Of a DNA stretch of 64,000 nt, positions 2,726-64,000 are shown one piece after another (position 1 is the stretch's first letter; every line of letters starts with the position of its first letter). Below the pieces are notes generated by a model, which did not search any database, had not been told where the DNA came from, and saw only the letters and a list, made by a program, of their open reading frames with translations. A program made the position numbers and the translations under genes. Source of the DNA: Lachnospiraceae bacterium (GTDB lineage: Bacteria > Bacillota > Bacilli > Lactobacillales > Streptococcaceae); contig CAVHFY010000003.1 in NCBI GenBank assembly GCA_963635745.1, forward strand, positions 8,850-72,849, read 5' to 3'.

Positions 2726-3865
2726 TTAACCGTTTGTTCGCACTGGTGTGATCAATTGAATGAAATCTTCTTCTTGTCCAGCAGGAACTAAGGTAAATGG
2801 GCGCAGAGCTGATAAAAATTTGATGCTTACTTCATCTGATTTGAGTGCTTTAAGCGCATCAATGAGATAACTAGGATTAAAACTAATGGTTAAATCAACA
2901 CCTTTTAGACTTTGGGTATCAATGTCCTCATTAACTTTTCCCACTTCTGGAGAATTAACGTGAGCACTCACCTGACCTGAGACAATCTCAAGTTTTACAG
3001 TTCCATTTTGGCTAGCATTGGAAACCAATTGTGCCCTTTGCATGGCATGCAACAAGGTCTGTGTTTTAAAGACCACTTCTGTTTCAAATGCCTTTGATAA
3101 TAAGCGGTCTGTATCTGGGTAATTTCCTTCCAAGAGACGTGAATAAAAGCTAATGTGTTCACTACGAAAAAGAATTTGACTTGTCGATAAGAAAACTTCA
3201 ACGTGTTCAATTTGTTCTGTAAAAACAGCTGAAAACTCGCGTAATGAACGACTTGGAATGACAACATCAAAATTATCAGAGATATCATCTAATTCTAATT
3301 GCCGTTGACTCAAACGATGAGAGTCTGTCGCTACTGCCTTAAAGGTTTTTTGATCAGATAAGACAAAGTGAACTCCTGTCAAGATGGGACGACTTTCTTG
3401 TGTACTTGCTGCAAAGGCTGTTTCAGCAATCACTTCTTTTAGGACACGCGTTTCCAAAATTAATGGTTGAGCGGTTGCCATTTCTTGTAAACGAGGATAT
3501 TGATCAGCATCTTTTCCCTTTAAGGTAATTTCTGATTTTCCACTTGTAAGCACAACCTGATTTTGTTCAATTTCAGTAAAATTCATTGTCACATCAGGCA
3601 AACTAGAGACGACATTGATAAAGAAATTTGCCTCTAATAGAATACTTCCACTTTGTTCAACAAAAAGTCCTGCATCTTCTTGGCTAGTTAAAATAGTATT
3701 TTCAATAGAGATTTGTCCATTAGAGCCTGTTAGGGTGAGACTATCTTGTTTTACATCCAATTTGATTGTCGACAAAATAGGAATTGCGTTTTTTGTACTG
3801 ATTGCACGTTTGGTTGTATTTAGAGCTTGTAAAAAGAAAGCTTTATTGATAGCGAATTGAATCAT
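2726..3865 (-). CDS. dnaN: DNA polymerase III beta sliding clamp
   Basis: SRPILTGV, ATDSHRL, SRLLEGNYPDT, QLITPVRT; lies next to dnaA. Confidence 0.98.
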   Translation of the reverse strand: MIQFAINKAFFLQALNTTKRAISTKNAIPILSTIKLDVKQDSLTLTGSNGQISIENTILTSQEDAGLFVEQSGSILLEANFFINVVSSLPDVTMNFTEIEQNQVVLTSGKSEITLKGKDADQYPRLQEMATAQPLILETRVLKEVIAETAFAASTQESRPILTGVHFVLSDQKTFKAVATDSHRLSQRQLELDDISDNFDVVIPSRSLREFSAVFTEQIEHVEVFLSTSQILFRSEHISFYSRLLEGNYPDTDRLLSKAFETEVVFKTQTLLHAMQRAQLVSNASQNGTVKLEIVSGQVSAHVNSPEVGKVNEDIDTQSLKGVDLTISFNPSYLIDALKALKSDEVSIKFLSALRPFTLVPAGQEEDFIQLITPVRTNG

Positions 3866-3880
3866 GAGAACTCCTTTGCT

Positions 3881-4025
3881 TTATTTTTATATATTATATA
3901 TAAATAGTAATAGTAGTAGGGGCTGTGTAAGTTGAGGAAAACAGAGGTAAAGCCTTGTAGTTCTAAGAGAGAAGCCTGTGGATAGCTTGTGGAAAACTTT
4001 GTAACTTTATCTTTGTTTATCCACA
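3881..4025 (-). other. oriC, dnaA-dnaN intergenic part: DnaA boxes plus basal unwinding system (DnaA-trios and AT-rich DUE)
   Basis: Boxes TTATCCACA 4017-4025, TGTGGAAAA 3988-3996 and TGTGGATAG 3977-3985. The minus strand then reads TTTTCCTCA-ACTTACACA-GCCC-CTACTACTATTACTA-TTTATATAATATATAAAAA, the Bacillus-type box-box-GC-trio-AT-rich layout. Confidence 0.92.
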
Positions 4026-4027
4026 AG

Positions 4028-5440
4028 TTAACGGATATTGTCTTTGATGGTGGCTAGCTCAACTTGTAAGTTTTCATCATTAGTCAATGCTTTTTGAATT
4101 TTATGGTAGGCATGAAGTACGGTAGAATGATCGCGTCCGCCAAATTCTTTACCAATTTTTGGAAGTGAATTGTCCGTTAGTTCACGAGCCAGGTACATGG
4201 CAATTTGTCGAGCAAAGACGACTGACTGGGTACGTTTAGTACCGATAATTTGTTCTAAACTAACACCATAAAACTGGCCAACTTGTTTTTGGATATCCTT
4301 GATTGAAATAACTTTTTTGGCAGCATGTTCGGACTCTTGCGAGCGAATAGCTCCTGCGACTAGGTCAACTGTAATGGTATGTACCTGTTGGACTGAGGCA
4401 ACCAGACTAATCTTTTTTAAGGCACCTTCTAGGTCTCGGACATTGTTATCAAACTGTCTGGCAATATAGTTAATCGTTTCTTGTGGGAAATCGTAGGGGT
4501 AGTCACGCACTTTACTTGTTAAAATAGCCACGCGCATTTCATAGTTTGGCGGTGTAATCTCTACGGTTAATCCCCAGTTAAAACGTGAAACCAGGCGCTC
4601 CTCCATACCATTGAGTTCGTTTGGATTACGGTCACTGGTCAGTACAATTTGTTTTTCAGTGTCATGCAACGCATTAAAGGTATTAAAGAATTCCTCTTGC
4701 ATAGTCCCTTTTTTAGCTAACAACTGAATATCATCGATCAAGAGGACATCGACTTCACGGTATTTTTGTTTGAAAGTCTCCATCGAGTTCCGTCCGGTTG
4801 TATTAAGACTCATATGCTTAATCATATCGTTGATGAAGTCTTCAGAGGTCACATACAAAATGCGAGCCTGAGGATTTTCTTCCTGAATAGCATTGCCAAT
4901 AGCTGTAATAAGGTGTGTTTTTCCTAAGCCGGAACCACCGTGAATAAACAGGGGATTGTAAATCTTTCCAGGTGTGTTTGCGACAGCTATTGCCGCGGCA
5001 ACCGCCCACTGGTTTCCCTCACCTTTGACAAAATTTGAAAATTGGTACTTGCTATTTAGAGTATTTGGTAAGTTAACGAGAGCAGGTATTGATACTTGTT
5101 GATTTGATGCCACTTCTGCCTTTTCTCGATAGGTTTCTCGTGTAGGAGTACTTTCGTAAGTTTCTTGTTGAACAAAATGTCGCGGGTTATCTTCTCCAAA
5201 TTCGTAGGTAATATGTAGCTGTTGTTCAAAAATTTCAAAGCCCGCTGTAATCACAATATCTTCAAGATTTTGTTCCCAAAATAGGCGTTTCATTTTAGAG
5301 GTTAAAAATATGGTCACGCTATTTTTTGAAACACCAACGAGCTGGCTATCTCCAACATAAAATTCGTAAGTAGTTTGCTTGAGACGTTCTTTTGAAAGCA
5401 CTAGGACACGGTTCCAAAAAAGTTGTTCATTTTCGGTCAT
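4028..5440 (-). CDS. dnaA: Chromosomal replication initiator
   Basis: [32 protein letters not shown]. Start at ATG 5440 (MTENEQ) after a TAGGAG RBS. Confidence 0.99.
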
Positions 5441-5488
5441 AAGAATTCTCCTAGTTAAGTCACTATATTCTAGCACAATTCAAAAAAG

Positions 5489-5681
5489 TTTTCCACAGGT
5501 CCTTTTAGAAAAAACTTACCCACAGGCATAAAAAAAATCCACAGTGTGGATTTAAGTTTTCCACAGGTTGTGGAAAAAAGGTGAATACTTGGGGATTAAA
5601 GGCTTTTCGCCTGTGAATTTCCTGTTAAAATAGATGTTGATGTGAAAAGTTATCCTCATTCTGATTTAAAACTGTGGATAA
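5489..5681. promoter_or_regulatory. oriC, upstream-of-dnaA DnaA-box cluster
   Basis: TTTTCCACA 5489, TTACCCACA 5516, AAATCCACA 5535, TGTGGATTT 5545, TTTTCCACA 5557, TGTGGAAAA 5569, TTATCCTCA 5650, TGTGGATAA 5673. Confidence 0.9.
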
Positions 5682-6441
5682 GTTGATCAAACTCTTCTAA
5701 GTTATTAAAAGGTATGATAACCTTACCTTTCCCTTTTTTTTCCTGAAACTCAATGGTGACAGCTAGACCCAATTTTTGTTTGAGCCACTCTTCTTGGGTC
5801 TTGACGTCAGCATTTTTTTCTGGATTGACTTTTGGCAGGTGAGAGCGACTGGTTTGTTTGAGGAGTATTTCGAGTTGACGTACGCTGAGGGACTCTTTTA
5901 AAATACGTTCAAGCCAGTAATATTGTGTATTTTGTGAGAGACCAATGAGAAGTCGGCCATGGCCGGCACTTATTTTACCTTCTATCAAAGCAGTTTGTAG
6001 GTCTTTTGAGAGTTGCAAGAGTCGTAAACTGTTGGTCACATAGGGTCTTGATTTTCCTATAGTTTTTGCGACGCTTTCATGAGTGGCGCCCACTTGTGCG
6101 AGAAGATTTTCAATGGCAAGGGCTTCTTCAATTGGATTTAGGTCCGAACGTTGAATGTTTTCTACAAGTGCTTGGTTACGACTTTCTTGGTCAGAAATCG
6201 GTCGAATGATGGCTTTGATTTCAGTCATTCCAGCCAGTTGACTTGCTCTTAGTCGCCTTTCTCCAGCAATGAGTTCGTAACCTGAGATTGGAGATTCTCT
6301 CACAATGATGGGTTGAATCAGACCATTTTTACTGATGGAGGTAGAAAGGTCGATTAAAGCATCCTGATCAAATTGGAGACGTGGTTGGTAAGGATTGGTG
6401 TGAATTTGTTCAATAGGGATGATGGCAAAACGTTCAGACAT
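5656..6441 (-). CDS. parB: Chromosome partitioning protein ParB/Spo0J
   Basis: NPYQPR, YELIAGERRLRA, ENIQRSDLNPIEEA, HTH GKSRPYVTNSLRLL. Confidence 0.97.
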   Translation of the reverse strand: MSERFAIIPIEQIHTNPYQPRLQFDQDALIDLSTSISKNGLIQPIIVRESPISGYELIAGERRLRASQLAGMTEIKAIIRPISDQESRNQALVENIQRSDLNPIEEALAIENLLAQVGATHESVAKTIGKSRPYVTNSLRLLQLSKDLQTALIEGKISAGHGRLLIGLSQNTQYYWLERILKESLSVRQLEILLKQTSRSHLPKVNPEKNADVKTQEEWLKQKLGLAVTIEFQEKKGKGKVIIPFNNLEEFDQLIHSFKSE

Positions 6442-19036: not shown

Positions 19037-19867
19037 ATGATTACTTTTAAGGATATCTCCTTTTCATATGATAAGGAAAAAAAAGACAAAACCTTGGATG
19101 GGTTATCGTTTCACGTGAAACCTGGCGAATGGATTTCTATTGTTGGCCATAATGGTAGCGGAAAGTCAACGACTGTTCGCTTGATGGACGGTTTATTAGA
19201 GGCAGATTCTGGTCATATAATTATTGATGGTGATAGATTAACAATCGAAAATGTTTGGCAAATAAGACGAAAAATTGGTATGGTGTTCCAAAATCCAGAT
19301 AATCAATTTGTGGGGGCAACAGTAGAAGATGATATCGCTTTTGGTCTTGAAAATCAAGGAATCCCTCACCATGAAATGGTGGAAAAAATCCAACAGGCAT
19401 TAGAACAGGTTCACATGACAGATTTTAGGGATCGTGAACCCTCACGACTATCTGGTGGACAAAAACAACGTGTGGCTATTGCGGGAGCCTTAGTCTTAGA
19501 ACCGAAAATTCTTGTACTAGATGAAGCGACCAGTATGTTAGACCCTGCTGCACGTGCAGAAATCACTGCTCTCATTCAAGAAATTCGTCAAAAACGAGGG
19601 TTGACTGTTCTTTCGGTGACTCATGATTTAGACGAAGTGGCATTAAGTGACCGAGTGTTAGTCTTGAAAAAAGGCCATTTGGTCATGGAAACGACACCTA
19701 AAGAATTGTTCTCACACCCTCAAGAACTTGAAGAGCTTGGGTTAGACCAACCATTTACAATGCAAGTAGTGGCTAGTCTTCGAAATACTATTCCGAATTG
19801 TCCAGATGATTATCTAACAGCGAAAGAATTGGAGAACTTGCTATGGGAATATCACTCAACCATGTAG
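19037..19867 (+). CDS. ecfA1: ECF transporter ATPase A1
   Basis: [42 protein letters not shown]. Confidence 0.96.
19107..19122. promoter_or_regulatory. parS centromere site inside ecfA1
   Basis: cGTTTCACGTGAAACc, 14/16 match to TGTTTCACGTGAAACA. Confidence 0.85.
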
Positions 19868-40819: not shown

Positions 40820-41725
40820 ATGAAACGAGAAGGACAAGCAAGATTAGCCCTAGATCTACTTTTGATTGCTGTAGGTGTGGCCATATACAGCTTTGGTTTT
40901 GTCTATTTCAATATGGCGAACCAATTGGCTGAAGGCGGTATATCAGGAATCACGCTGATAACGCATGCCCTTTTCAAGATAAATCCCGCTTATATGTCCT
41001 TAATATTAAATGTGCCTTTGTTTTGGTTGGGGCGACGTATTTTTGGAAACAAAGCGTTAGGTCTAACGATATATGGAACCTTGTTGCTTTCGTTCTTCGT
41101 ATGGTTATGGCAAAAAATTCCGTTACAGATTGATGTCAGCCATGATATGCTGATTGCTGCACTACTTGCCGGAGTTTTTGCTGGTTTTGGTAGCGGGTTG
41201 GTCTTCCGTCATGGTGGAACTACTGGTGGTGGAGACATTATAGGGCGAGTTATAGAAGAAAAAACAAGTCGACCATTAGGACAAAATCTTTTTATTTTTG
41301 ATAGTGTTGTTCTTTTGTGCTCTTTGTCTTACATAGGGATTCGTCAGATGGTTTACACCCTAATTGCTAGCTTTGTTTATTCACAGATAATGCCCTTAAT
41401 ATTACGTGGAGGATATGCAGCTAAGGGTATGTTTATTATTACCGATTTTCCTGTTGAAATCGCTCAGGCTATCTCAGAGGTCCTAGAACGTGGAGCGACC
41501 TTTATTAATAGTGAAGGGGCCTATACACAAACACCTAAACGAATGGTTTACGTTATTGTAAACCCCAGAGAAGTGTCTGAAGTGAAGCACCTCTTAACTG
41601 AAATTGATCCACATGCTTTTATTTCAATTGTTGATGTGGATGAAATAATAGGTGAAGGCTTTACATGGGATATTAAACGTGTCAATAAGAGAACGGGCTT
41701 ATTCACAAATAATAAAAAAAATTAG
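40820..41725 (+). CDS. YitT family membrane protein
   Basis: LAEGGISG, LNVP, GTTGGGDI, RGAT, DPHAFI. Confidence 0.9.
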   Translation: MKREGQARLALDLLLIAVGVAIYSFGFVYFNMANQLAEGGISGITLITHALFKINPAYMSLILNVPLFWLGRRIFGNKALGLTIYGTLLLSFFVWLWQKIPLQIDVSHDMLIAALLAGVFAGFGSGLVFRHGGTTGGGDIIGRVIEEKTSRPLGQNLFIFDSVVLLCSLSYIGIRQMVYTLIASFVYSQIMPLILRGGYAAKGMFIITDFPVEIAQAISEVLERGATFINSEGAYTQTPKRMVYVIVNPREVSEVKHLLTEIDPHAFISIVDVDEIIGEGFTWDIKRVNKRTGLFTNNKKN

Positions 41726-57194: not shown

Positions 57195-58952
57195 GTGAAA
57201 GAAGATCAAAATAACATTGAGGTGGGTTCCCAGCCGTCGAGAGGACAATACAGCCGTGTTAGTCGACTAGAAAACGCGACAAGTAAGGTCCATCCGGCAA
57301 AAGAAGCTCGAGAGCGATTGCGCTTACCCAAAGAAGAAGCATCATCTGATGTTGAGCAAAAGGTCACAGAAAAGAAACACCAGCAAGGGCACAAGCTTAA
57401 AAAGGCCCATAAGCATAAGGTAGCAGAAACTAAGGCAAAAAAAGTATCGAATCGCAAACAAGCGGTGCCGAATCGGTTGATGACGAGCAAAAAGGTTTCT
57501 GTTTTAAGACGACATCGTCTCTTCTTGGCGATTTGTAGTCTATTTTTATCTGTATTGACGGTTTCAATGCCGTATATGACTAACCTTGCGAATGGATTTC
57601 AATCGCAAAGTCTTTATACAGGCTATCTATTTGCAAATGGATCGCTACCGTATACGGATGTTTTCTCAACTGGTGGATTTTTCTATTATGTCATTATTGC
57701 TGTATCCTATGTTTTAGGGTCTAGCATATGGCTCATTTTTGTTCACTTTCTAGCTTTTTATGTGGCAGGATTTTACTTGTATAAAATCGTTGCCCATATG
57801 ACTGGGCGACGTGATGCTGCAGTCAGCTTGTCATTAATTTATTACCTCTTAAATCTCGGTCTTGGTTTTGGAGGTCTATACCCAATCCAGTGGGCAATGC
57901 CATTTGTACTTTTAGGCATTTGGTTCTTAACTAAGTACTTCTCGGGTATGACCAAAGATGAAGCATTTATTTTGTATGGTTTTGTTTCCGTCTTTGCCTT
58001 CATGATTGAGCCTCGTACAGTTATTTTTTGGATAATTTCTTTCGTTGGTATTTTAGTCTACAATATCGCTAACCATCATTTTGCACGAGGATTTTATCAA
58101 TTACTAGCTATTGTATTTGGAGCGATTCTGGTCTTTTACACCGCTGCTTATTTTATCTTAAACCTTCAAATTTTGGGTAATTATGTCTATCAAGCGGGTA
58201 GTTATCTGCTGGGGCATTTTGCCATAGGTAATGAGAATCTATTCTTAACAGTAGTGTATCAGCTGTTTGTTGCAACCGCATCGGGATTGCTGATTGGTCT
58301 AACGGCTCTGTCTAAACATAGTGCTTATGCTTCGCGAGATCGAGTGATAAAATTAATTCTGGTTTTGACGCTTGGTGTCACTTTAGTGGTAGCCCTATTT
58401 ACTCAAACTTTCCAGATCTATGATCTTTTATTACCGTTACCTTATGGTTTAATATTGGCAGCTGTTGTGGTGACCAATTCAGATGAGGTTAACGAGGAAA
58501 CGATGACAGGACGCGAGAGCGCCTTCACGGTATTCTTAGCGAAACACTTTTATCTGCCTTATGTGGTTGTACTTCTTGGAGTACTCTGTCCTCTAGTAAC
58601 GGGAGTTTTCCAGATTGCTACTGTAAAAGAGCGGGCGACAGTCTCTGGTTTTGTATCGAAAAACACGTCAAAATCTGATAGCATCTATGTTTGGGACAAT
58701 TCGGCGATGATTTATCTAAAGAGTCAGCGCAAAACGGCTTCACAAATTGTGTTGCCAAGTGTGAATGCGGCATCTGAAGTGAATCAAAAATTATTGTCAG
58801 ATGAACTCTTGCAAAACAATGCTAAATATGTCATCGTAAATAACAGTCAAAAATTACCTAGTGCAGTAAGTACGGATTTGACGAGTAATTATGATATCGT
58901 TACAGTTGATAATGTGAGTCATTTCACGGTCTATCAGAAAAAAACTTCGTAA
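57195..58952 (+). CDS. Multi-pass membrane protein, probable GT-C-like glycosyltransferase (DUF2079-type), with a long basic cytoplasmic N-tail
   Basis: GTG start after AAGGAG; G.LPY.D.F..GG..YY motif, many TM helices, C-terminal IYVWD domain; conserved position upstream of nrdD. Confidence 0.75.
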   Translation: MKEDQNNIEVGSQPSRGQYSRVSRLENATSKVHPAKEARERLRLPKEEASSDVEQKVTEKKHQQGHKLKKAHKHKVAETKAKKVSNRKQAVPNRLMTSKKVSVLRRHRLFLAICSLFLSVLTVSMPYMTNLANGFQSQSLYTGYLFANGSLPYTDVFSTGGFFYYVIIAVSYVLGSSIWLIFVHFLAFYVAGFYLYKIVAHMTGRRDAAVSLSLIYYLLNLGLGFGGLYPIQWAMPFVLLGIWFLTKYFSGMTKDEAFILYGFVSVFAFMIEPRTVIFWIISFVGILVYNIANHHFARGFYQLLAIVFGAILVFYTAAYFILNLQILGNYVYQAGSYLLGHFAIGNENLFLTVVYQLFVATASGLLIGLTALSKHSAYASRDRVIKLILVLTLGVTLVVALFTQTFQIYDLLLPLPYGLILAAVVVTNSDEVNEETMTGRESAFTVFLAKHFYLPYVVVLLGVLCPLVTGVFQIATVKERATVSGFVSKNTSKSDSIYVWDNSAMIYLKSQRKTASQIVLPSVNAASEVNQKLLSDELLQNNAKYVIVNNSQKLPSAVSTDLTSNYDIVTVDNVSHFTVYQKKTS

Positions 58953-58960
58953 CAACTAAA

Positions 58961-59006
58961 AATCAATATCTTGTGTTTTGAAAAAAACTTACCACAAGAT
59001 ATTGAT
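58961..59006. promoter_or_regulatory. Two NrdR boxes upstream of nrdD
   Basis: AATCAATATCTTGTGT and ACCACAAGATATTGAT resemble acaCwAtATaTwGtg. Together they also form an inverted repeat. Confidence 0.8.
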
Positions 59007-59056
59007 TTTTTTTGGGATTGCGTTATAATAGGTGGCGTGAAAGGAAGTATTGCGAA

Positions 59057-61261
59057 ATGATGACATTGGAAGAAGAACGTGTATTAAGTCACCCATTCAT
59101 TCGTGTTATGAAACGAGATGGTCGACTAGTTGATTTTGATGCGCAAAAGATAGATCGAGCTCTATACAAAGCCAGTCAAGAAGTTGAGGAAATGACACCG
59201 CAAGTTGAGGCCAAGTTACGTACCATTTCTGATCGTATTATTGCCGAAATTTTTGAACGATTTACTAAAGATATCAAGATTTACGAAATTCAAAGTATTG
59301 TTGAGCATGAATTACTAGCCTCTGGGGAATATACGATTGCAAAAGAATACATAAATTATCGGACACAGCGTGATTTCGATCGCCAAAAGGCGACGGATAT
59401 TAATGTTGCCATTGATAAACTGCTTAATAAAGAGCAAGCAGTGGTTAACGAAAATGCCAATAAAGATAGTGAAGTCTTTAATACACAGAGGGATTTGACG
59501 GCAGGAATTGTTGGTAAATCTATCGGACTTAAGTTGCTTCCTCCTCATGTCGCTAATGCTCACCAAAAGGGTGATATTCATTTTCATGATATGGATTATA
59601 GTCCTTACACGCCAATGACAAACTGCTGTTTGATTGACTTTAAGGGAATGCTAGAAAATGGCTTTAAAATGGGAAATGCGGAGGTTGAGTCGCCCAAATC
59701 GATTCAAACAGCTACAGCACAGATTTCTCAAATTATTGCCAATGTTGCTTCTAGTCAGTATGGGGGTTGTACGGCGGACCGTATCGACGAACTGCTGGCA
59801 CCTTATGCGAAACTAAATTACCAAAAGCATCTTAAGGATGCCAAAGAGTGGGTGGCAGAAGACAAGCAAAAGTCTTATGCACGCCAAAAGACGCAAAAAG
59901 ATATCTATGATGCTATGCAATCATTGGAGTATGAGATTAATACCTTGTTTACTTCCAATGGTCAAACGCCCTTTACCTCACTAGGATTCGGCCTTGGGAC
60001 GAGTTGGTTTGAACGAGAAATTCAAAAAGCCATTTTAACTATCCGTATTAAAGGTTTGGGAAGTGAACATCGCACAGCTATATTTCCTAAGTTAATATTT
60101 ACCTTGAAATCTGGACTTAATTTGGAAGTTGGGACACCAAACTATGACATCAAACAATTAGCTCTGGAATGTGCCACAAAACGTATGTATCCAGATGTTT
60201 TATCATATGACAAAATTGTTGAATTAACAGGATCTTTCAAAGCACCGATGGGTTGTCGTTCTTTCTTACAAGGTTGGTGGGACGAAAATGGACGAGAAGT
60301 TAACTCTGGTCGAATGAATCTTGGTGTTGTGACGCTTAATCTTCCCCGGATTGCGCTTGAAGCCGATGGAAATATCGAACGTTTTTGGGATATTTTCAAA
60401 GAACGTCTTGCGATTGCCAAGGATGCCTTAGTTTACCGTGTTGAACGTGTCAAAGAAGCGAGCCCGGCTAATGCACCGATACTTTACCAATATGGTGCTT
60501 TTGGAAAACGTCTGCCAAAAGTAGGTAGTGTAGATGAACTGTTTAGAAACCGTCGGGCAACCGTCTCTCTAGGTTATATTGGTCTTTATGAGGTCGCGAC
60601 AGCTTTTTATGGTGGTACTTGGGAACATAATCCTGCTGCTAAAAATCTGACTATTGATATTGTTCGTCAAATGAAGGAAGCTTGTGAGGATTGGTCTAAT
60701 GAGTATGGCTATCATTTCTCAGTATACTCTACACCATCAGAAAGTTTGACAGACCGTTTTTGTCGTTTGGATAGCGAAAAATTTGGTTTAGTGGCTGATA
60801 TCACGGATAAAGAGTATTATACCAACTCTTTCCACTATGATGTGCGTAAAAATCCAACACCTTTTGAAAAGCTTGATTTCGAAAAGGACTATCCTGCTGC
60901 TGGAGCGACGGGTGGCTTTATTCATTATTGCGAGTATCCTGTTTTGCAACAAAATCCCAAAGCGCTTGAAGCAGTATGGGATTATGCTTATAGTCGTGTT
61001 GGTTACCTTGGAACCAATACCCCAATAGATCATTGCTATGCTTGTGGTTTTGAAGGAGATTTCGAGCCAACTGAGCGAGGGTTCAAATGTCCAAATTGTG
61101 GTAATAGTGACCCTAAAACCGTCGATGTGGTTAAGAGAACTTGTGGTTATTTGGGAAATCCACAAGCACGCCCTATGGTAAATGGCCGTCATAAGGAGAT
61201 TTCAGCTCGGGTTAAACATATGAATGGTTCAACCATTGCTCAAGAAGGAGAGAAAATTTAA
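59057..61261 (+). CDS. nrdD: Anaerobic (class III) ribonucleoside-triphosphate reductase
   Basis: ATP cone VMKRDG, ENANKD, TNCC, MGCRS, C-terminal CxxC...CxxC and RTCGYLG glycyl-radical motif. Confidence 0.99.
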   Translation: MMTLEEERVLSHPFIRVMKRDGRLVDFDAQKIDRALYKASQEVEEMTPQVEAKLRTISDRIIAEIFERFTKDIKIYEIQSIVEHELLASGEYTIAKEYINYRTQRDFDRQKATDINVAIDKLLNKEQAVVNENANKDSEVFNTQRDLTAGIVGKSIGLKLLPPHVANAHQKGDIHFHDMDYSPYTPMTNCCLIDFKGMLENGFKMGNAEVESPKSIQTATAQISQIIANVASSQYGGCTADRIDELLAPYAKLNYQKHLKDAKEWVAEDKQKSYARQKTQKDIYDAMQSLEYEINTLFTSNGQTPFTSLGFGLGTSWFEREIQKAILTIRIKGLGSEHRTAIFPKLIFTLKSGLNLEVGTPNYDIKQLALECATKRMYPDVLSYDKIVELTGSFKAPMGCRSFLQGWWDENGREVNSGRMNLGVVTLNLPRIALEADGNIERFWDIFKERLAIAKDALVYRVERVKEASPANAPILYQYGAFGKRLPKVGSVDELFRNRRATVSLGYIGLYEVATAFYGGTWEHNPAAKNLTIDIVRQMKEACEDWSNEYGYHFSVYSTPSESLTDRFCRLDSEKFGLVADITDKEYYTNSFHYDVRKNPTPFEKLDFEKDYPAAGATGGFIHYCEYPVLQQNPKALEAVWDYAYSRVGYLGTNTPIDHCYACGFEGDFEPTERGFKCPNCGNSDPKTVDVVKRTCGYLGNPQARPMVNGRHKEISARVKHMNGSTIAQEGEKI

Positions 61262-61398
61262 TGGGGAAATACCAACTAGACGATAAAGGAAAAGCACAAG
61301 TTACCCGGTTTCACGAGAAACATTCAACGGGAGGTACCAACAAAAGAGATCGCATTGCGCATTTGCGAGAACAATTTTTGAACAAGAGTAAAAACTAA
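61261..61398 (+). CDS. Small 45-aa protein coupled to nrdD (not in the ORF track)
   Basis: TAATG stop/start overlap, AAGGAG RBS inside the nrdD 3' end; MGKYQLDDKGKAQVTRFHEKHSTGGTNKRDRIAHLREQFLNKSKN. Confidence 0.82.
   Translation: MGKYQLDDKGKAQVTRFHEKHSTGGTNKRDRIAHLREQFLNKSKN
61307..61322. promoter_or_regulatory. Candidate parS site
   Basis: gGTTTCACGaGAAACA, 14/16 match to the parS consensus. Confidence 0.55.
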
Positions 61399-61445
61399 TA
61401 AAAGTGAGGGGCTACTCTCACTTTTTATCTAGAAAGGTATGGGCA

Positions 61446-61946
61446 ATGAAACTACGCAGACCAGAACTGACAGATAAGCAAGCTGTTATGGAGATGATGA
61501 TTGACTTTAAGACAAGCCGATCTCCGCACGACGGTGGGTTTTGGCAAGCTGAGGCATTTTCTTACGACGATTGGATTGAAAGGAATCAAGAAATAGAAGT
61601 GGGCTTAGGTCTATCAAAGGATCAGGTTCCTGCGATTCAGTTTGTAGCTTTTGATGCCTATAATCGCGCTGTTGGCTTTCTTCAGTTGCGATTGCGTTTG
61701 AATGATTTGCTATTGGAAAAAGGGGGACATATTGGTTATTCCATTCGCCCGACTGAGAGGGGAAAGGGATATGCTAAGGAGGCCCTTCGTCAGGGATTGA
61801 AAATTGCAAAAGAGAAGAATCTTCAAAGTGTGCTTGTGACTTGTCATGTTGAGAATGTTGCTAGCCGTGCAGTCATTTTAGCTAATGGCGGGCAGTTAGA
61901 GGATATACGTCATAAGACAGAACGGTATTGGATAGATGTGGAGTAG
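61446..61946 (+). CDS. GNAT family N-acetyltransferase
   Basis: GGHIGYSIRPTERGKGYA, N.ASR.VI..NGG, RYWI. Start ATG 61446. Confidence 0.92.
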   Translation: MKLRRPELTDKQAVMEMMIDFKTSRSPHDGGFWQAEAFSYDDWIERNQEIEVGLGLSKDQVPAIQFVAFDAYNRAVGFLQLRLRLNDLLLEKGGHIGYSIRPTERGKGYAKEALRQGLKIAKEKNLQSVLVTCHVENVASRAVILANGGQLEDIRHKTERYWIDVE

Positions 61947-61951
61947 GTATC

Positions 61952-62557
61952 ATGACATGGAATACACCAAAGCCAGGGGAATGGAAGAGCGAAGAATTAA
62001 GCCAAGGCCGTATCATTGATTATAAGGCTTTTAACTTTGTAGATGGTGAGGGCGTTCGTAATTCGCTTTATGTCGCGGGTTGTATGTTTCATTGCGAAGG
62101 ATGCTACAATGTAGCGACTTGGTCTTTTAAGGCGGGAATCCCCTATACAGCAGAGCTTGAAGAACAAATCATGAAGGATTTGGCTGAACCCTATGTTCAA
62201 GGTTTAACCCTTTTGGGGGGAGAACCTTTTTTAAACACAGGCATTTTATTGCCTTTAGTTAAACGTGTGAAAAAGGAGCTACCAGAAAAAGATATTTGGT
62301 CTTGGACGGGCTATACTTGGGAAGAAATGATGCAAGAGACATCAGATAAGCTTGAAATGCTCCAGTATATTGATATTTTAGTCGATGGACGCTACGATAA
62401 ATCTAAGCGCAACTTAATGTTACAGTTTCGTGGGTCATCTAACCAGCGAATTATTGATGTTCAAACATCTTTGCAGACTAAGCAAGTGGTTATTTGGGAT
62501 AAATTAAATGATGGCGATGCCGCTTTCGAACAGATTAAACGAGAGGATCTCATTTAA
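61952..62557 (+). CDS. nrdG: Anaerobic RNR activating protein (radical SAM)
   Basis: VDGEGVR..GCMFHCEGCYN (CxxxCxxC), GGEP, FRGSSNQR. Confidence 0.98.
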   Translation: MTWNTPKPGEWKSEELSQGRIIDYKAFNFVDGEGVRNSLYVAGCMFHCEGCYNVATWSFKAGIPYTAELEEQIMKDLAEPYVQGLTLLGGEPFLNTGILLPLVKRVKKELPEKDIWSWTGYTWEEMMQETSDKLEMLQYIDILVDGRYDKSKRNLMLQFRGSSNQRIIDVQTSLQTKQVVIWDKLNDGDAAFEQIKREDLI

Positions 62558-62600
62558 AAAAAGCCCGCTAAGGGCCTTTTTAAATGATTGATTTACGGGG

Positions 62601-63335
62601 TTAGTTTTTGATTCGGACATAGACGAGGTCTTGTTCTGTGGATAAGTCTGGTCGATAGGTAAAGCCGTCGGCGACGATGGTCTTTAAGTCGTTGATTTCC
62701 TGAATCCCCTGAATTAGAGCTTGATTGATGAAGGCACCACGTGCTTTTTTAGAAATAGTAGCATGTTTTTTTAAACAACCATCTGCCTCTTCAAGGAAAT
62801 TTAATCGTATAAAATGTGAACGAACACTTGGTGAGAAGACGTCTTCAAACTCACTTGACAAAAGGGAAATAACAGTTTCTTGTGATTTGGCCCAGGCATC
62901 GTAGTGAGGACGCCAAAAGCTTTTAAGAGTTTGTTGATTGGCTAGTTTGATTTTGGTTTGGAAATCTAGTCGGTGAGGGACGATAGGAGTTAATGCAGGG
63001 ATAATGCCGTAGAGACTTGTTGCAATAAAGAGTGAGTTATCCACATTATCCACAAACTCTGTGGATAATGTTTCTGTGGCCATTTGTCGGTACATTAATC
63101 CATGATAGAGTAGCAAGGCTGGGTAGGCAGATGCGGTTTGGTTAGCGATAGCTTGCCACCGGTGATACTCGCGTTCAGCAGAACTATATTTTATGTGATA
63201 GGCTTGAGCTAACTCATCTATTGACAACTGTGTTAACTTATCCACAACGGGTCTTGACAATTGTGGATAAGTAGCGACTGACTTTACAAAAGGTAATTCC
63301 ATTTCTTTGGCTGGAGGAATAATAAAACTTAGCAT
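62601..63335 (-). CDS. yaaA: Peroxide stress protein YaaA (DUF328/UPF0246)
   Basis: IIPPAKEM, A..LY.GLMY, SLYG, HRLDF, L.S.EF, SKKARG. Start ATG 63335 lies 6 nt after TTGACA-17-TACAAT. Confidence 0.92.
   Translation of the reverse strand: MLSFIIPPAKEMELPFVKSVATYPQLSRPVVDKLTQLSIDELAQAYHIKYSSAEREYHRWQAIANQTASAYPALLLYHGLMYRQMATETLSTEFVDNVDNSLFIATSLYGIIPALTPIVPHRLDFQTKIKLANQQTLKSFWRPHYDAWAKSQETVISLLSSEFEDVFSPSVRSHFIRLNFLEEADGCLKKHATISKKARGAFINQALIQGIQEINDLKTIVADGFTYRPDLSTEQDLVYVRIKN
62637..63270. repeat. Six perfect DnaA boxes inside yaaA
   Basis: TGTGGATAA 62637, TTATCCACA 63037, TTATCCACA 63046, TGTGGATAA 63060, TTATCCACA 63238, TGTGGATAA 63262. Confidence 0.9.
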
Positions 63336-63461
63336 AGCATGATTGTAAAGGAAACTGTAAATCTTGTCAATAAAGCTGTCAATTTCAATTATCCCGGTCG
63401 GATAGAGTGACTTTTTTGGTATAATGAGAGTAACATAATGCAAATGTAAGGGGGTTTTGCT

Positions 63462-64000
63462 ATGAAAGTAACGACATTGGGTTGTTGGGGTGGCTATGCC
63501 TATAAAGATGCTGGCACAACGAGTTTTTTATTGCAATCTGAAGATGGGTTTAATTTACTCATGGATGCAGGGAGCCGTGCGGTAACGGAATTGGAAAAGG
63601 AAATCTCTCCACTAGAGCTTGATGCGGTTATCATCAGCCATTACCATGCAGATCACGTAGCAGATTTAGGGGTTTTGCGGCAGTACCGTCAGCTTTACCC
63701 TAAGCACTTGTGGGAGGCTAAAGTGTTGCCAATTTATGGGCACACAGAGGATCCTGAGGAATTTGCCAAATTAACCTTAACAGATGTTTCTCAAGGGCAT
63801 GCCTATGATGTGGTGAATGGTCAAATGATTGGGCCTTTTGATATTAGTTTTATTAGAACAGTCCACCCTGTTCCATGCTACGCTTTTCGTATTTGTGAAC
63901 GCCAAACAGGACAAGTTTTGGTCTTTACGGGAGATACGGGATATTTTCCTGAATTGCCTGATTTTGTAAAAGGAGCCGACCTTTTTCTAGCGGATGTCTA
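63462..64000 (+). CDS. MBL-fold metallo-hydrolase (YhfI/RNase Z-like), 5' part (runs off the window)
   Basis: Manual translation MKVTTLGCWGGY..TTSFLL..LLMDAGS..ISHYHADH..TVHPVPC..FTGDTG. Confidence 0.92.
   Translation, partial: MKVTTLGCWGGYAYKDAGTTSFLLQSEDGFNLLMDAGSRAVTELEKEISPLELDAVIISHYHADHVADLGVLRQYRQLYPKHLWEAKVLPIYGHTEDPEEFAKLTLTDVSQGHAYDVVNGQMIGPFDISFIRTVHPVPCYAFRICERQTGQVLVFTGDTGYFPELPDFVKGADLFLADV

Follow-up and report, generated by a model that had tools for sequence, protein, structure and literature searches.

A cluster of six perfect DnaA boxes inside yaaA, about 57 kb from oriC in a Streptococcus genome, as a candidate origin-proximal DnaA sink

The closest described counterparts of the locus presented here are the DnaA-box clusters (DBCs) of Bacillus subtilis, whose flanking genes differ between species while the place near oriC is kept, as stated in an excerpt of Ishikawa 2007, PMC2533591. 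According to the excerpted text of Okumura 2012, PMC3245932, deletion of these clusters leads to early initiation and an origin-proximal copy rescues it, only two of the six clusters clearly contribute to initiation control, and the authors describe the regulatory clusters as indistinguishable from the others by sequence. A site inside B. subtilis rplB is strong in vitro and unbound in vivo, possibly owing to transcription (PMC4447404, in the part consulted). The criterion for a DBC is at least four closely spaced boxes with an Ishikawa A above 0.3, and all eight stable B. subtilis sites pass it. In Escherichia coli, two kinds of off-origin site are relevant: DARS, for which the core arrangement used below agrees with passages of PMC5742627 and PMC6868365 (the latter also giving the 5-bp gap), and datA, which requires an IHF site among its boxes (PMC5742627, same passage).

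The locus lies in a 64,000-nt stretch of contig CAVHFY010000003.1 (GCA_963635745.1), hereafter the window, and coordinates are window positions unless another contig is named. The genome is that of a Streptococcus near Streptococcus sp. DD12 (YaaA 81% and DnaA 94% identical). An exact 9-mer search returned six perfect TTATCCACA DnaA boxes, all within the yaaA open reading frame (62601-63335) and all at the positions that the initial annotation of this DNA had listed:

62601-63335, minus strand: yaaA coding sequence, 244 aa, intact, PF03883 (E 1.8e-49), peroxide-stress protein family
63262-63270, minus strand: perfect DnaA box, gene position 66, codons T-Y-P-Q; perfect in DD12
63238-63246, plus strand: perfect DnaA box, gene position 90, codons V-V-D-K; one mismatch in DD12
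63060-63068, minus strand: perfect DnaA box, core box I, gene position 268, codons L-S-T
63046-63054, plus strand: perfect DnaA box, core box II; perfect in DD12
63037-63045, plus strand: perfect DnaA box, core box III; perfect in DD12
62637-62645, minus strand: perfect DnaA box, lone, near the yaaA 3' end, gene position 691, codons L-S-T; perfect in DD12

Boxes 63262 and 63238 form a head-to-head pair with 15 bp between them. In the core, box II stands head-to-head with box I across a gap of 5 bp (63055-63059), and box III abuts box II (0 bp) in identical orientation; core box I is also found in salivarius-like yaaA genes.

Such a concentration of boxes is exceptional in this genome. The window holds ten perfect boxes, the other four being at 4017, 5673, 35106 and 46801, while shuffled windows had a mean of 0.67 and five at most, and none of 100 shuffles reached ten. 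The whole genome (1.87 Mb, 36 contigs, GC 42.9%) contains 39, and in this 36-contig assembly, in which an unassembled gap could hide another cluster, only the yaaA locus brings together three or more perfect boxes at most 700 bp apart; the sole other group at such spacing is a pair on contig C19. The Markov expectation is 0.006-0.010 perfect boxes per 634 bp, so the earlier chance estimate of about 0.01 holds, and only the GC content of 38% assumed with it was too low. The cluster has an Ishikawa A of 0.271, the top value of the genome, with oriC at 0.228. It is situated on the upstream side, 57.2-57.8 kb from the dnaA start (the distance first proposed was about 57 kb) and 58.6-59.2 kb from the dnaA-dnaN box, with a distance to oriC of approx. 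3% of genome length.

Some further box groups were seen in the same genome. Four one-mismatch boxes at 41605-41707, 36 kb from dnaA, make up a weak cluster that ranks third in the genome by A (0.17). They occupy the 3' end of a gene for a membrane protein, which is convergent with an argS-like gene. The two perfect boxes of contig C19 (9365 and 9399) point the same way at a spacing of 34 bp and precede a gene that, by eye, encodes a putative secreted cell-wall hydrolase, and DD12 has a pair with identical spacing (G401:C1:643032/643066); the C19 pair is a possible DnaA-controlled promoter. Contig C26 (2.5 kb), possibly foreign or contaminating, has the fourth-ranked A value; its ORFs resemble genes for a hexuronate transporter and for a cupin and stand apart from the remaining genome.

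The origin itself serves as the reference for judging whether the cluster resembles one:

3866-5700, minus strand: oriC and dnaA, with an AT-rich stretch, a trio-like run, boxes either side of dnaA and a GC-skew turn nearby

The AT-rich stretch and the trio-like run, found with a rough trio pattern, are at 3866-4030. Both exact boxes originally reported for oriC (4017 and 5673) are the only perfect ones there, and when one mismatch is allowed the boxes number six on the upstream side of dnaA and three in the dnaA-dnaN interval. At the yaaA cluster, the same rough pattern gives no DnaA-trio-like run, no AT-rich stretch is comparable (the lowest 30-bp GC is 17% versus 3% at oriC), and the GC skew of the contig, with its turning point at 3679, stays positive across yaaA. 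A second replication origin at yaaA, which the initial annotation had also dismissed, is therefore rejected, there being no AT-rich element, trios or skew inversion.

The surroundings of the cluster include the following elements:

63342-63370, minus strand: yaaA promoter of sigma-70 type, TTGACA-17-TACAAT, 11/12 consensus matches
61952-62557, plus strand: nrdG, which closes the nrdD-GNAT-nrdG operon and converges on yaaA
61307-61322, unstranded: parS-like palindrome, 2 mismatches to the consensus, 1.33 kb from the cluster, kept in DD12

Since the promoter ends only six bases ahead of the ATG, a layout shared by seven of eight relatives when judged by eye, the yaaA mRNA is probably leaderless. 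The codon bias of yaaA is at the 39th percentile from the top among 1,490 ORFs, a value that hints only weakly at modest expression. Ahead of nrdD there are two NrdR-like boxes (58961 and 58993, spanning 58961-59007; two mismatches to the consensus), an ordinary feature. Palindromes resembling parS are present on the upstream arm at 19107, 36891 and 61307, with six in the genome (at most two mismatches to the consensus).

The boxes are kept by selection at the DNA level, in dual coding with yaaA. For this comparison boxes were defined in the study genome only and set against the DD12 yaaA, which has five of them perfect and the sixth with a single mismatch; box bases are identical at 53/54 sites and other bases at 512/678. 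Of the synonymous third positions, DD12 keeps all 17 within boxes and 93 of the 174 elsewhere in the gene (p = 4.8e-5), and when the gene was recoded synonymously with the codon usage of the genome, four boxes arose in 6 of 100,000 trials and five or six never. The protein did not force the boxes, because the residues that they encode are common to 26% of relatives on average, versus 45% for other YaaA residues; several of them are nearly private to the study lineage, and the cluster occupies variable, tolerant stretches of YaaA. A protein-forced motif is thus rejected by synonymous conservation, recoding trials and low residue sharing, in line with the initial statement that one protein motif could not explain the boxes. 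Codon choice was also compared in two LST columns of the alignment: at box 63060 (position 268) the box codons are used by 17 of 18 genes with LST, at the C-terminal column (box 62637) by only 3 of 14. In the salivarius-like group, all 15 of 15 yaaA genes carry the position-268 box and the synonymous test is not significant (5/8 versus 83/162, p = 0.40), while the pyogenic-like group gives 2/2 versus 16/87 (p = 0.04) from very few sites. The idea that synonymous sites in the boxes are frozen among orthologs is supported for DD12 and gains no significant support in the salivarius-like group.

The yaaA locus was followed in 60 loci, comprising 42 from 150 protein matches (study genome included) and 18 named records after three repeats were dropped; four pairs among them (e.g., L015/L043) look like one record twice. 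They were classed by hand according to nrdG proximity, three being too short to class. Where nrdG is just downstream of yaaA (29 loci), at least one perfect box is in or beside the gene in 23 and at least two in 20, and the six without a perfect box include the two best-scoring relatives of the 150 matches (L002 and L003). Of the 28 loci that have no nrdG close by, 26 are free of perfect boxes and 2 have at least two; L042 and L044 retain their yaaA boxes without nrdG in the vicinity. Box positions at the locus shift between groups. Salivarius-like genes have them at gene positions 109, 124 and 268, S. penaeicida, S. bovimastitidis and similar genomes have one at 518 and a tightly packed series of them between yaaA and nrdG, and genome G040 has boxes upstream of yaaA. 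The intergenic yaaA-nrdG clusters reach A values of 1.1-1.3 (L005, L019, L020, L045, L047). In DD12, the cluster is 58-59 kb upstream of dnaA, and in S. salivarius the yaaA boxes are 89 kb upstream of it.

A wider search for head-to-head boxes 1-6 bp apart covered 27 complete or near-complete genomes. Outside oriC it gave 23 loci in 17/27 genomes, 20 of the loci on the upstream arm (three loci split by rounding were merged, and some genome lengths are approximate), with no such pair in the other 10/27; the reversed control pattern was found in 0/27. Fifteen cases (15/27 genomes) are 40-110 kb from dnaA and, since the genomes are kin, represent some four to five independent host loci in addition to yaaA. 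In streptococci the common form is a pair with a 3-bp gap, which is also present in oriC. The host sequences are various: a spacer between alpha-fucosidase and adcA or arcA-like genes at 80 kb from dnaA (G083), the aspS-dltD spacer at 50-51 kb (G097 and G144), the inside of a GH2 glycosidase gene at 78 and 109 kb (G001 and G093), the inside of an M50 peptidase gene at 84 kb (G020) and a glycosyltransferase-phosphoesterase spacer at 51 kb (G026). In genomes with yaaA elsewhere, a perfect box was present in 0/5 nrdG regions. There is no cluster in the upstream arm (120-140 kb) of G038, G007 and G130, with the best non-origin A at most 0.052, and the perfect-box lists of G045, G090, G130 and G104 show at most two boxes in any 700 bp outside the origin. 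Chromosomal position, not host gene, is what recurs. As to whether other species carry such a cluster at a similar distance from oriC, a head-to-head pair is there in 15 of 27 genomes, often in unrelated genes or spacers, and ten have no pair outside oriC.

Other box groups came to light among the relatives. In G115, two perfect boxes (C1:30573 and 30610, L053) are upstream of pcsB, 30 kb from dnaA, PcsB being a division hydrolase with CC_PcsB and CHAP domains. Box clusters at the recD2 3' end occur in G105 (C1:1422409-1422452, L084/L116) and G020 (C7:217231, L082); in the one of G105, 294 kb from dnaA and with A = 3.5, three boxes are spaced and oriented exactly as in the E. coli DARS core and a fourth box abuts them. 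S. salivarius KSS6 has four perfect boxes (G402:C1:115193-115305) 117 kb from dnaA on the other arm, and in G013 and G122 (L086, L087) an array of five boxes precedes a DUF711 gene and may be the same locus as that of KSS6.

We consider it fairly likely that the yaaA cluster holds back initiation as a sink for DnaA close to the origin, in the manner of the B. subtilis clusters, an analogy supported by the Bacillus-like set of this genome, with YabA and a single HU/IHF-family gene (PF00216). DnaA itself very probably occupies the cluster in vivo, and its recognition-helix motif RDHSTV is kept; the effect on initiation and its negative sign would follow by analogy. DnaA would bind the high-affinity boxes, the three-box core cooperatively, and this binding would leave less DnaA available or active at oriC. 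Because the cluster is only some 57 kb from oriC, it would be copied soon after initiation, so the sink capacity would double early, when re-initiation must be prevented. The host gene would be incidental, with the cluster being re-created in whatever sequence sits at that distance. The step on which this reading most depends, DnaA binding within a gene that is transcribed, is made less certain by an A below 0.3 and by the rplB site that is unbound in vivo. The cut-off itself may not transfer to this organism, as the oriC of the study genome (0.228) also falls below it.

Instead of titrating DnaA, the core could reactivate it: an ADP-DnaA dimer sitting head-to-head on boxes 63060 and 63046, helped by 63037, would swap ADP for ATP and promote the next initiation. 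We regard this DARS-like role as distinctly unlikely. The E. coli DARS1 and DARS2 cores, which we take to be sited in the bioD-uvrB and rppH-mutH spacers, read +,5,-,3,- in the spacer sequences examined, while the core here reads +,5,-,0,- on the minus strand with both gaps kept in DD12; the exact E. coli geometry inside recD2 of G105 (294 kb from dnaA) speaks for the same role. DnaA residues Asp269 and Leu290 are kept, but Gln208, required for DARS action, aligns with Asn204 here. The pattern +,5,-,(0 to 4),- was found in only 3/401 genomes, by which DARS geometry as a genus trait is rejected, and the usual streptococcal unit is the 3-bp pair that oriC uses too. The 5-bp gap may even be forced by coding, because shortening it to 3 bp would interrupt yaaA with a stop codon when the box is read as L-S-T. 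A BLAST search of the core against E. coli genomes returned only 18-base plasmid matches (E = 6) and is uninformative. It also counts against a DARS-like role that relocating DARS1 near the origin perturbs initiation and that no DnaA-ATP conversion regulator is named for B. subtilis, both in the consulted part of PMC5295017. A broader version, in which a Firmicute DARS-like core evolved independently in a coding gene and streptococci tune the ATP/ADP state of DnaA via head-to-head pairs rewritten 40-110 kb from oriC, has in our estimation an equally slim chance. A datA-like site is unlikely because the genome has one HU/IHF-family gene, which we infer to be HU, and IHF-like matches are present only at 62581 and 62685, beside the lone box, with none in the core.

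Control of transcription is unlikely as the function of the cluster. DnaA would act as a roadblock on yaaA (from +66) or at the nrdD-nrdG 3' end, thereby making genes for peroxide stress or anaerobic dNTP synthesis follow the replication cycle. The first box is indeed 66 bases from the likely yaaA start, boxes remain at the yaaA-nrdG locus in three groups (and at yaaA without nrdG in L042 and L044), and several B. subtilis clusters regulate their neighbours. However, the promoter core is free of boxes apart from one match with a single mismatch, which coincides with the -35 hexamer, nrdD already has its NrdR-like boxes (58961 and 58993), and perfect boxes are lacking in 5/5 nrdG regions away from yaaA and 26/28 yaaA loci away from nrdG; on the first of these counts, a link to nrdDG is rejected. 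Genomes with yaaA elsewhere often carry the cluster at the same oriC distance in unrelated loci while their yaaA and nrdG regions have no boxes, for which reason the initially suggested role tied to yaaA or nrdDG is not favoured. A structural role, floated for the B. subtilis clusters as well, would have DnaA bridge the cluster and oriC within a ParB/parS domain and aid origin folding or segregation with little effect on timing. For this we have the parS-like site 1.33 kb from the cluster, kept in DD12, and one approx. 4.5 kb from yaaA in 10/12 long salivarius-like loci (L032, L034-L040, L042-L044, L046), but no parS-like site in the stretches of 8-11 kb around the fucosidase, dltD, GH2 and M50 clusters (L049, L069-L081, L088), and the role seems very improbable. 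That the boxes are not DnaA sites at all, and represent mRNA hairpins, a site of another protein or chance, we hold to be extremely improbable. The two head-to-head pairs can form stems of 12-13 bp, each at about -16 kcal/mol, yet whole-region folding has z = -1.76 (12/200 shuffles were equally good), the tandem, lone and same-direction salivarius-like boxes cannot pair, and across the loci one arm alone varies at position 5, a change that the N of TTATNCACA permits and that breaks the stem. An RNA family is rejected, with no Rfam match in 58500-64000, and chance is excluded by the genome-wide count and the synonymous recoding trials.

With the origin-proximal sink as the preferred reading, the cluster points to a putative and hitherto undescribed brake on the start of replication. 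To our knowledge, the timing of replication initiation in streptococci is poorly mapped. Full-text searches gave no report of a streptococcal off-origin DnaA-box cluster, although Mackiewicz 2004 and Fujimitsu 2009 could list some; the consulted parts of PMC4285127, PMC5295017 and PMC4585315 mention none, and 'Streptococcus' does not occur in three supplementary files of PMC3245932. As the boxes are located in coding sequence, they can be removed silently with the protein intact, which would separate a role at the DNA level from one at the gene level, and our comparison names matching candidate loci in several streptococcal groups together with natural cases without a cluster. In general terms, a putative regulatory DNA element keeps its chromosomal position while its host gene changes, and variable residues of a protein, YaaA, are shaped by a DNA motif. 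Phenotypes of yaaA deletion in these species may reflect loss of putative DnaA sites.

The initial annotation had left the choice between a datA-, DARS- and DBC-like locus; the DBC type is the most likely of them, the DARS type finds little support and the datA type is not favoured. With E. coli datA the cluster shares the character of an off-origin group of strong boxes expected to restrain initiation. With E. coli DARS it shares three boxes, of which box I faces II and III, and the 5 bp between I and II; it differs in the spacing of boxes II and III (3 bp in E. coli, 0 bp here and in DD12) and in being origin-proximal and intragenic with no IHF heterodimer evident. Streptomyces coelicolor, of another phylum, has an oriC-proximal box cluster likewise implicated in replication control (cited in the excerpted text of PMC3245932). 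We did not file the cluster as a DBC member, since its A of 0.271, with six boxes spread over 634 bp, is under the 0.3 cut-off and it is wholly intragenic, whereas all eight B. subtilis sites are listed by flanking genes, i.e., between genes. Further differences are that all six boxes here are perfect, whereas a B. subtilis site has 0-3 boxes of the highest affinity, and that there is one dominant cluster rather than six. In common with the B. subtilis DBCs, it is off-origin yet near oriC (57-59 kb here), it has several high-affinity boxes and neighbour genes that vary by species while the position stays, and it belongs to an organism with YabA and ParB-type control.
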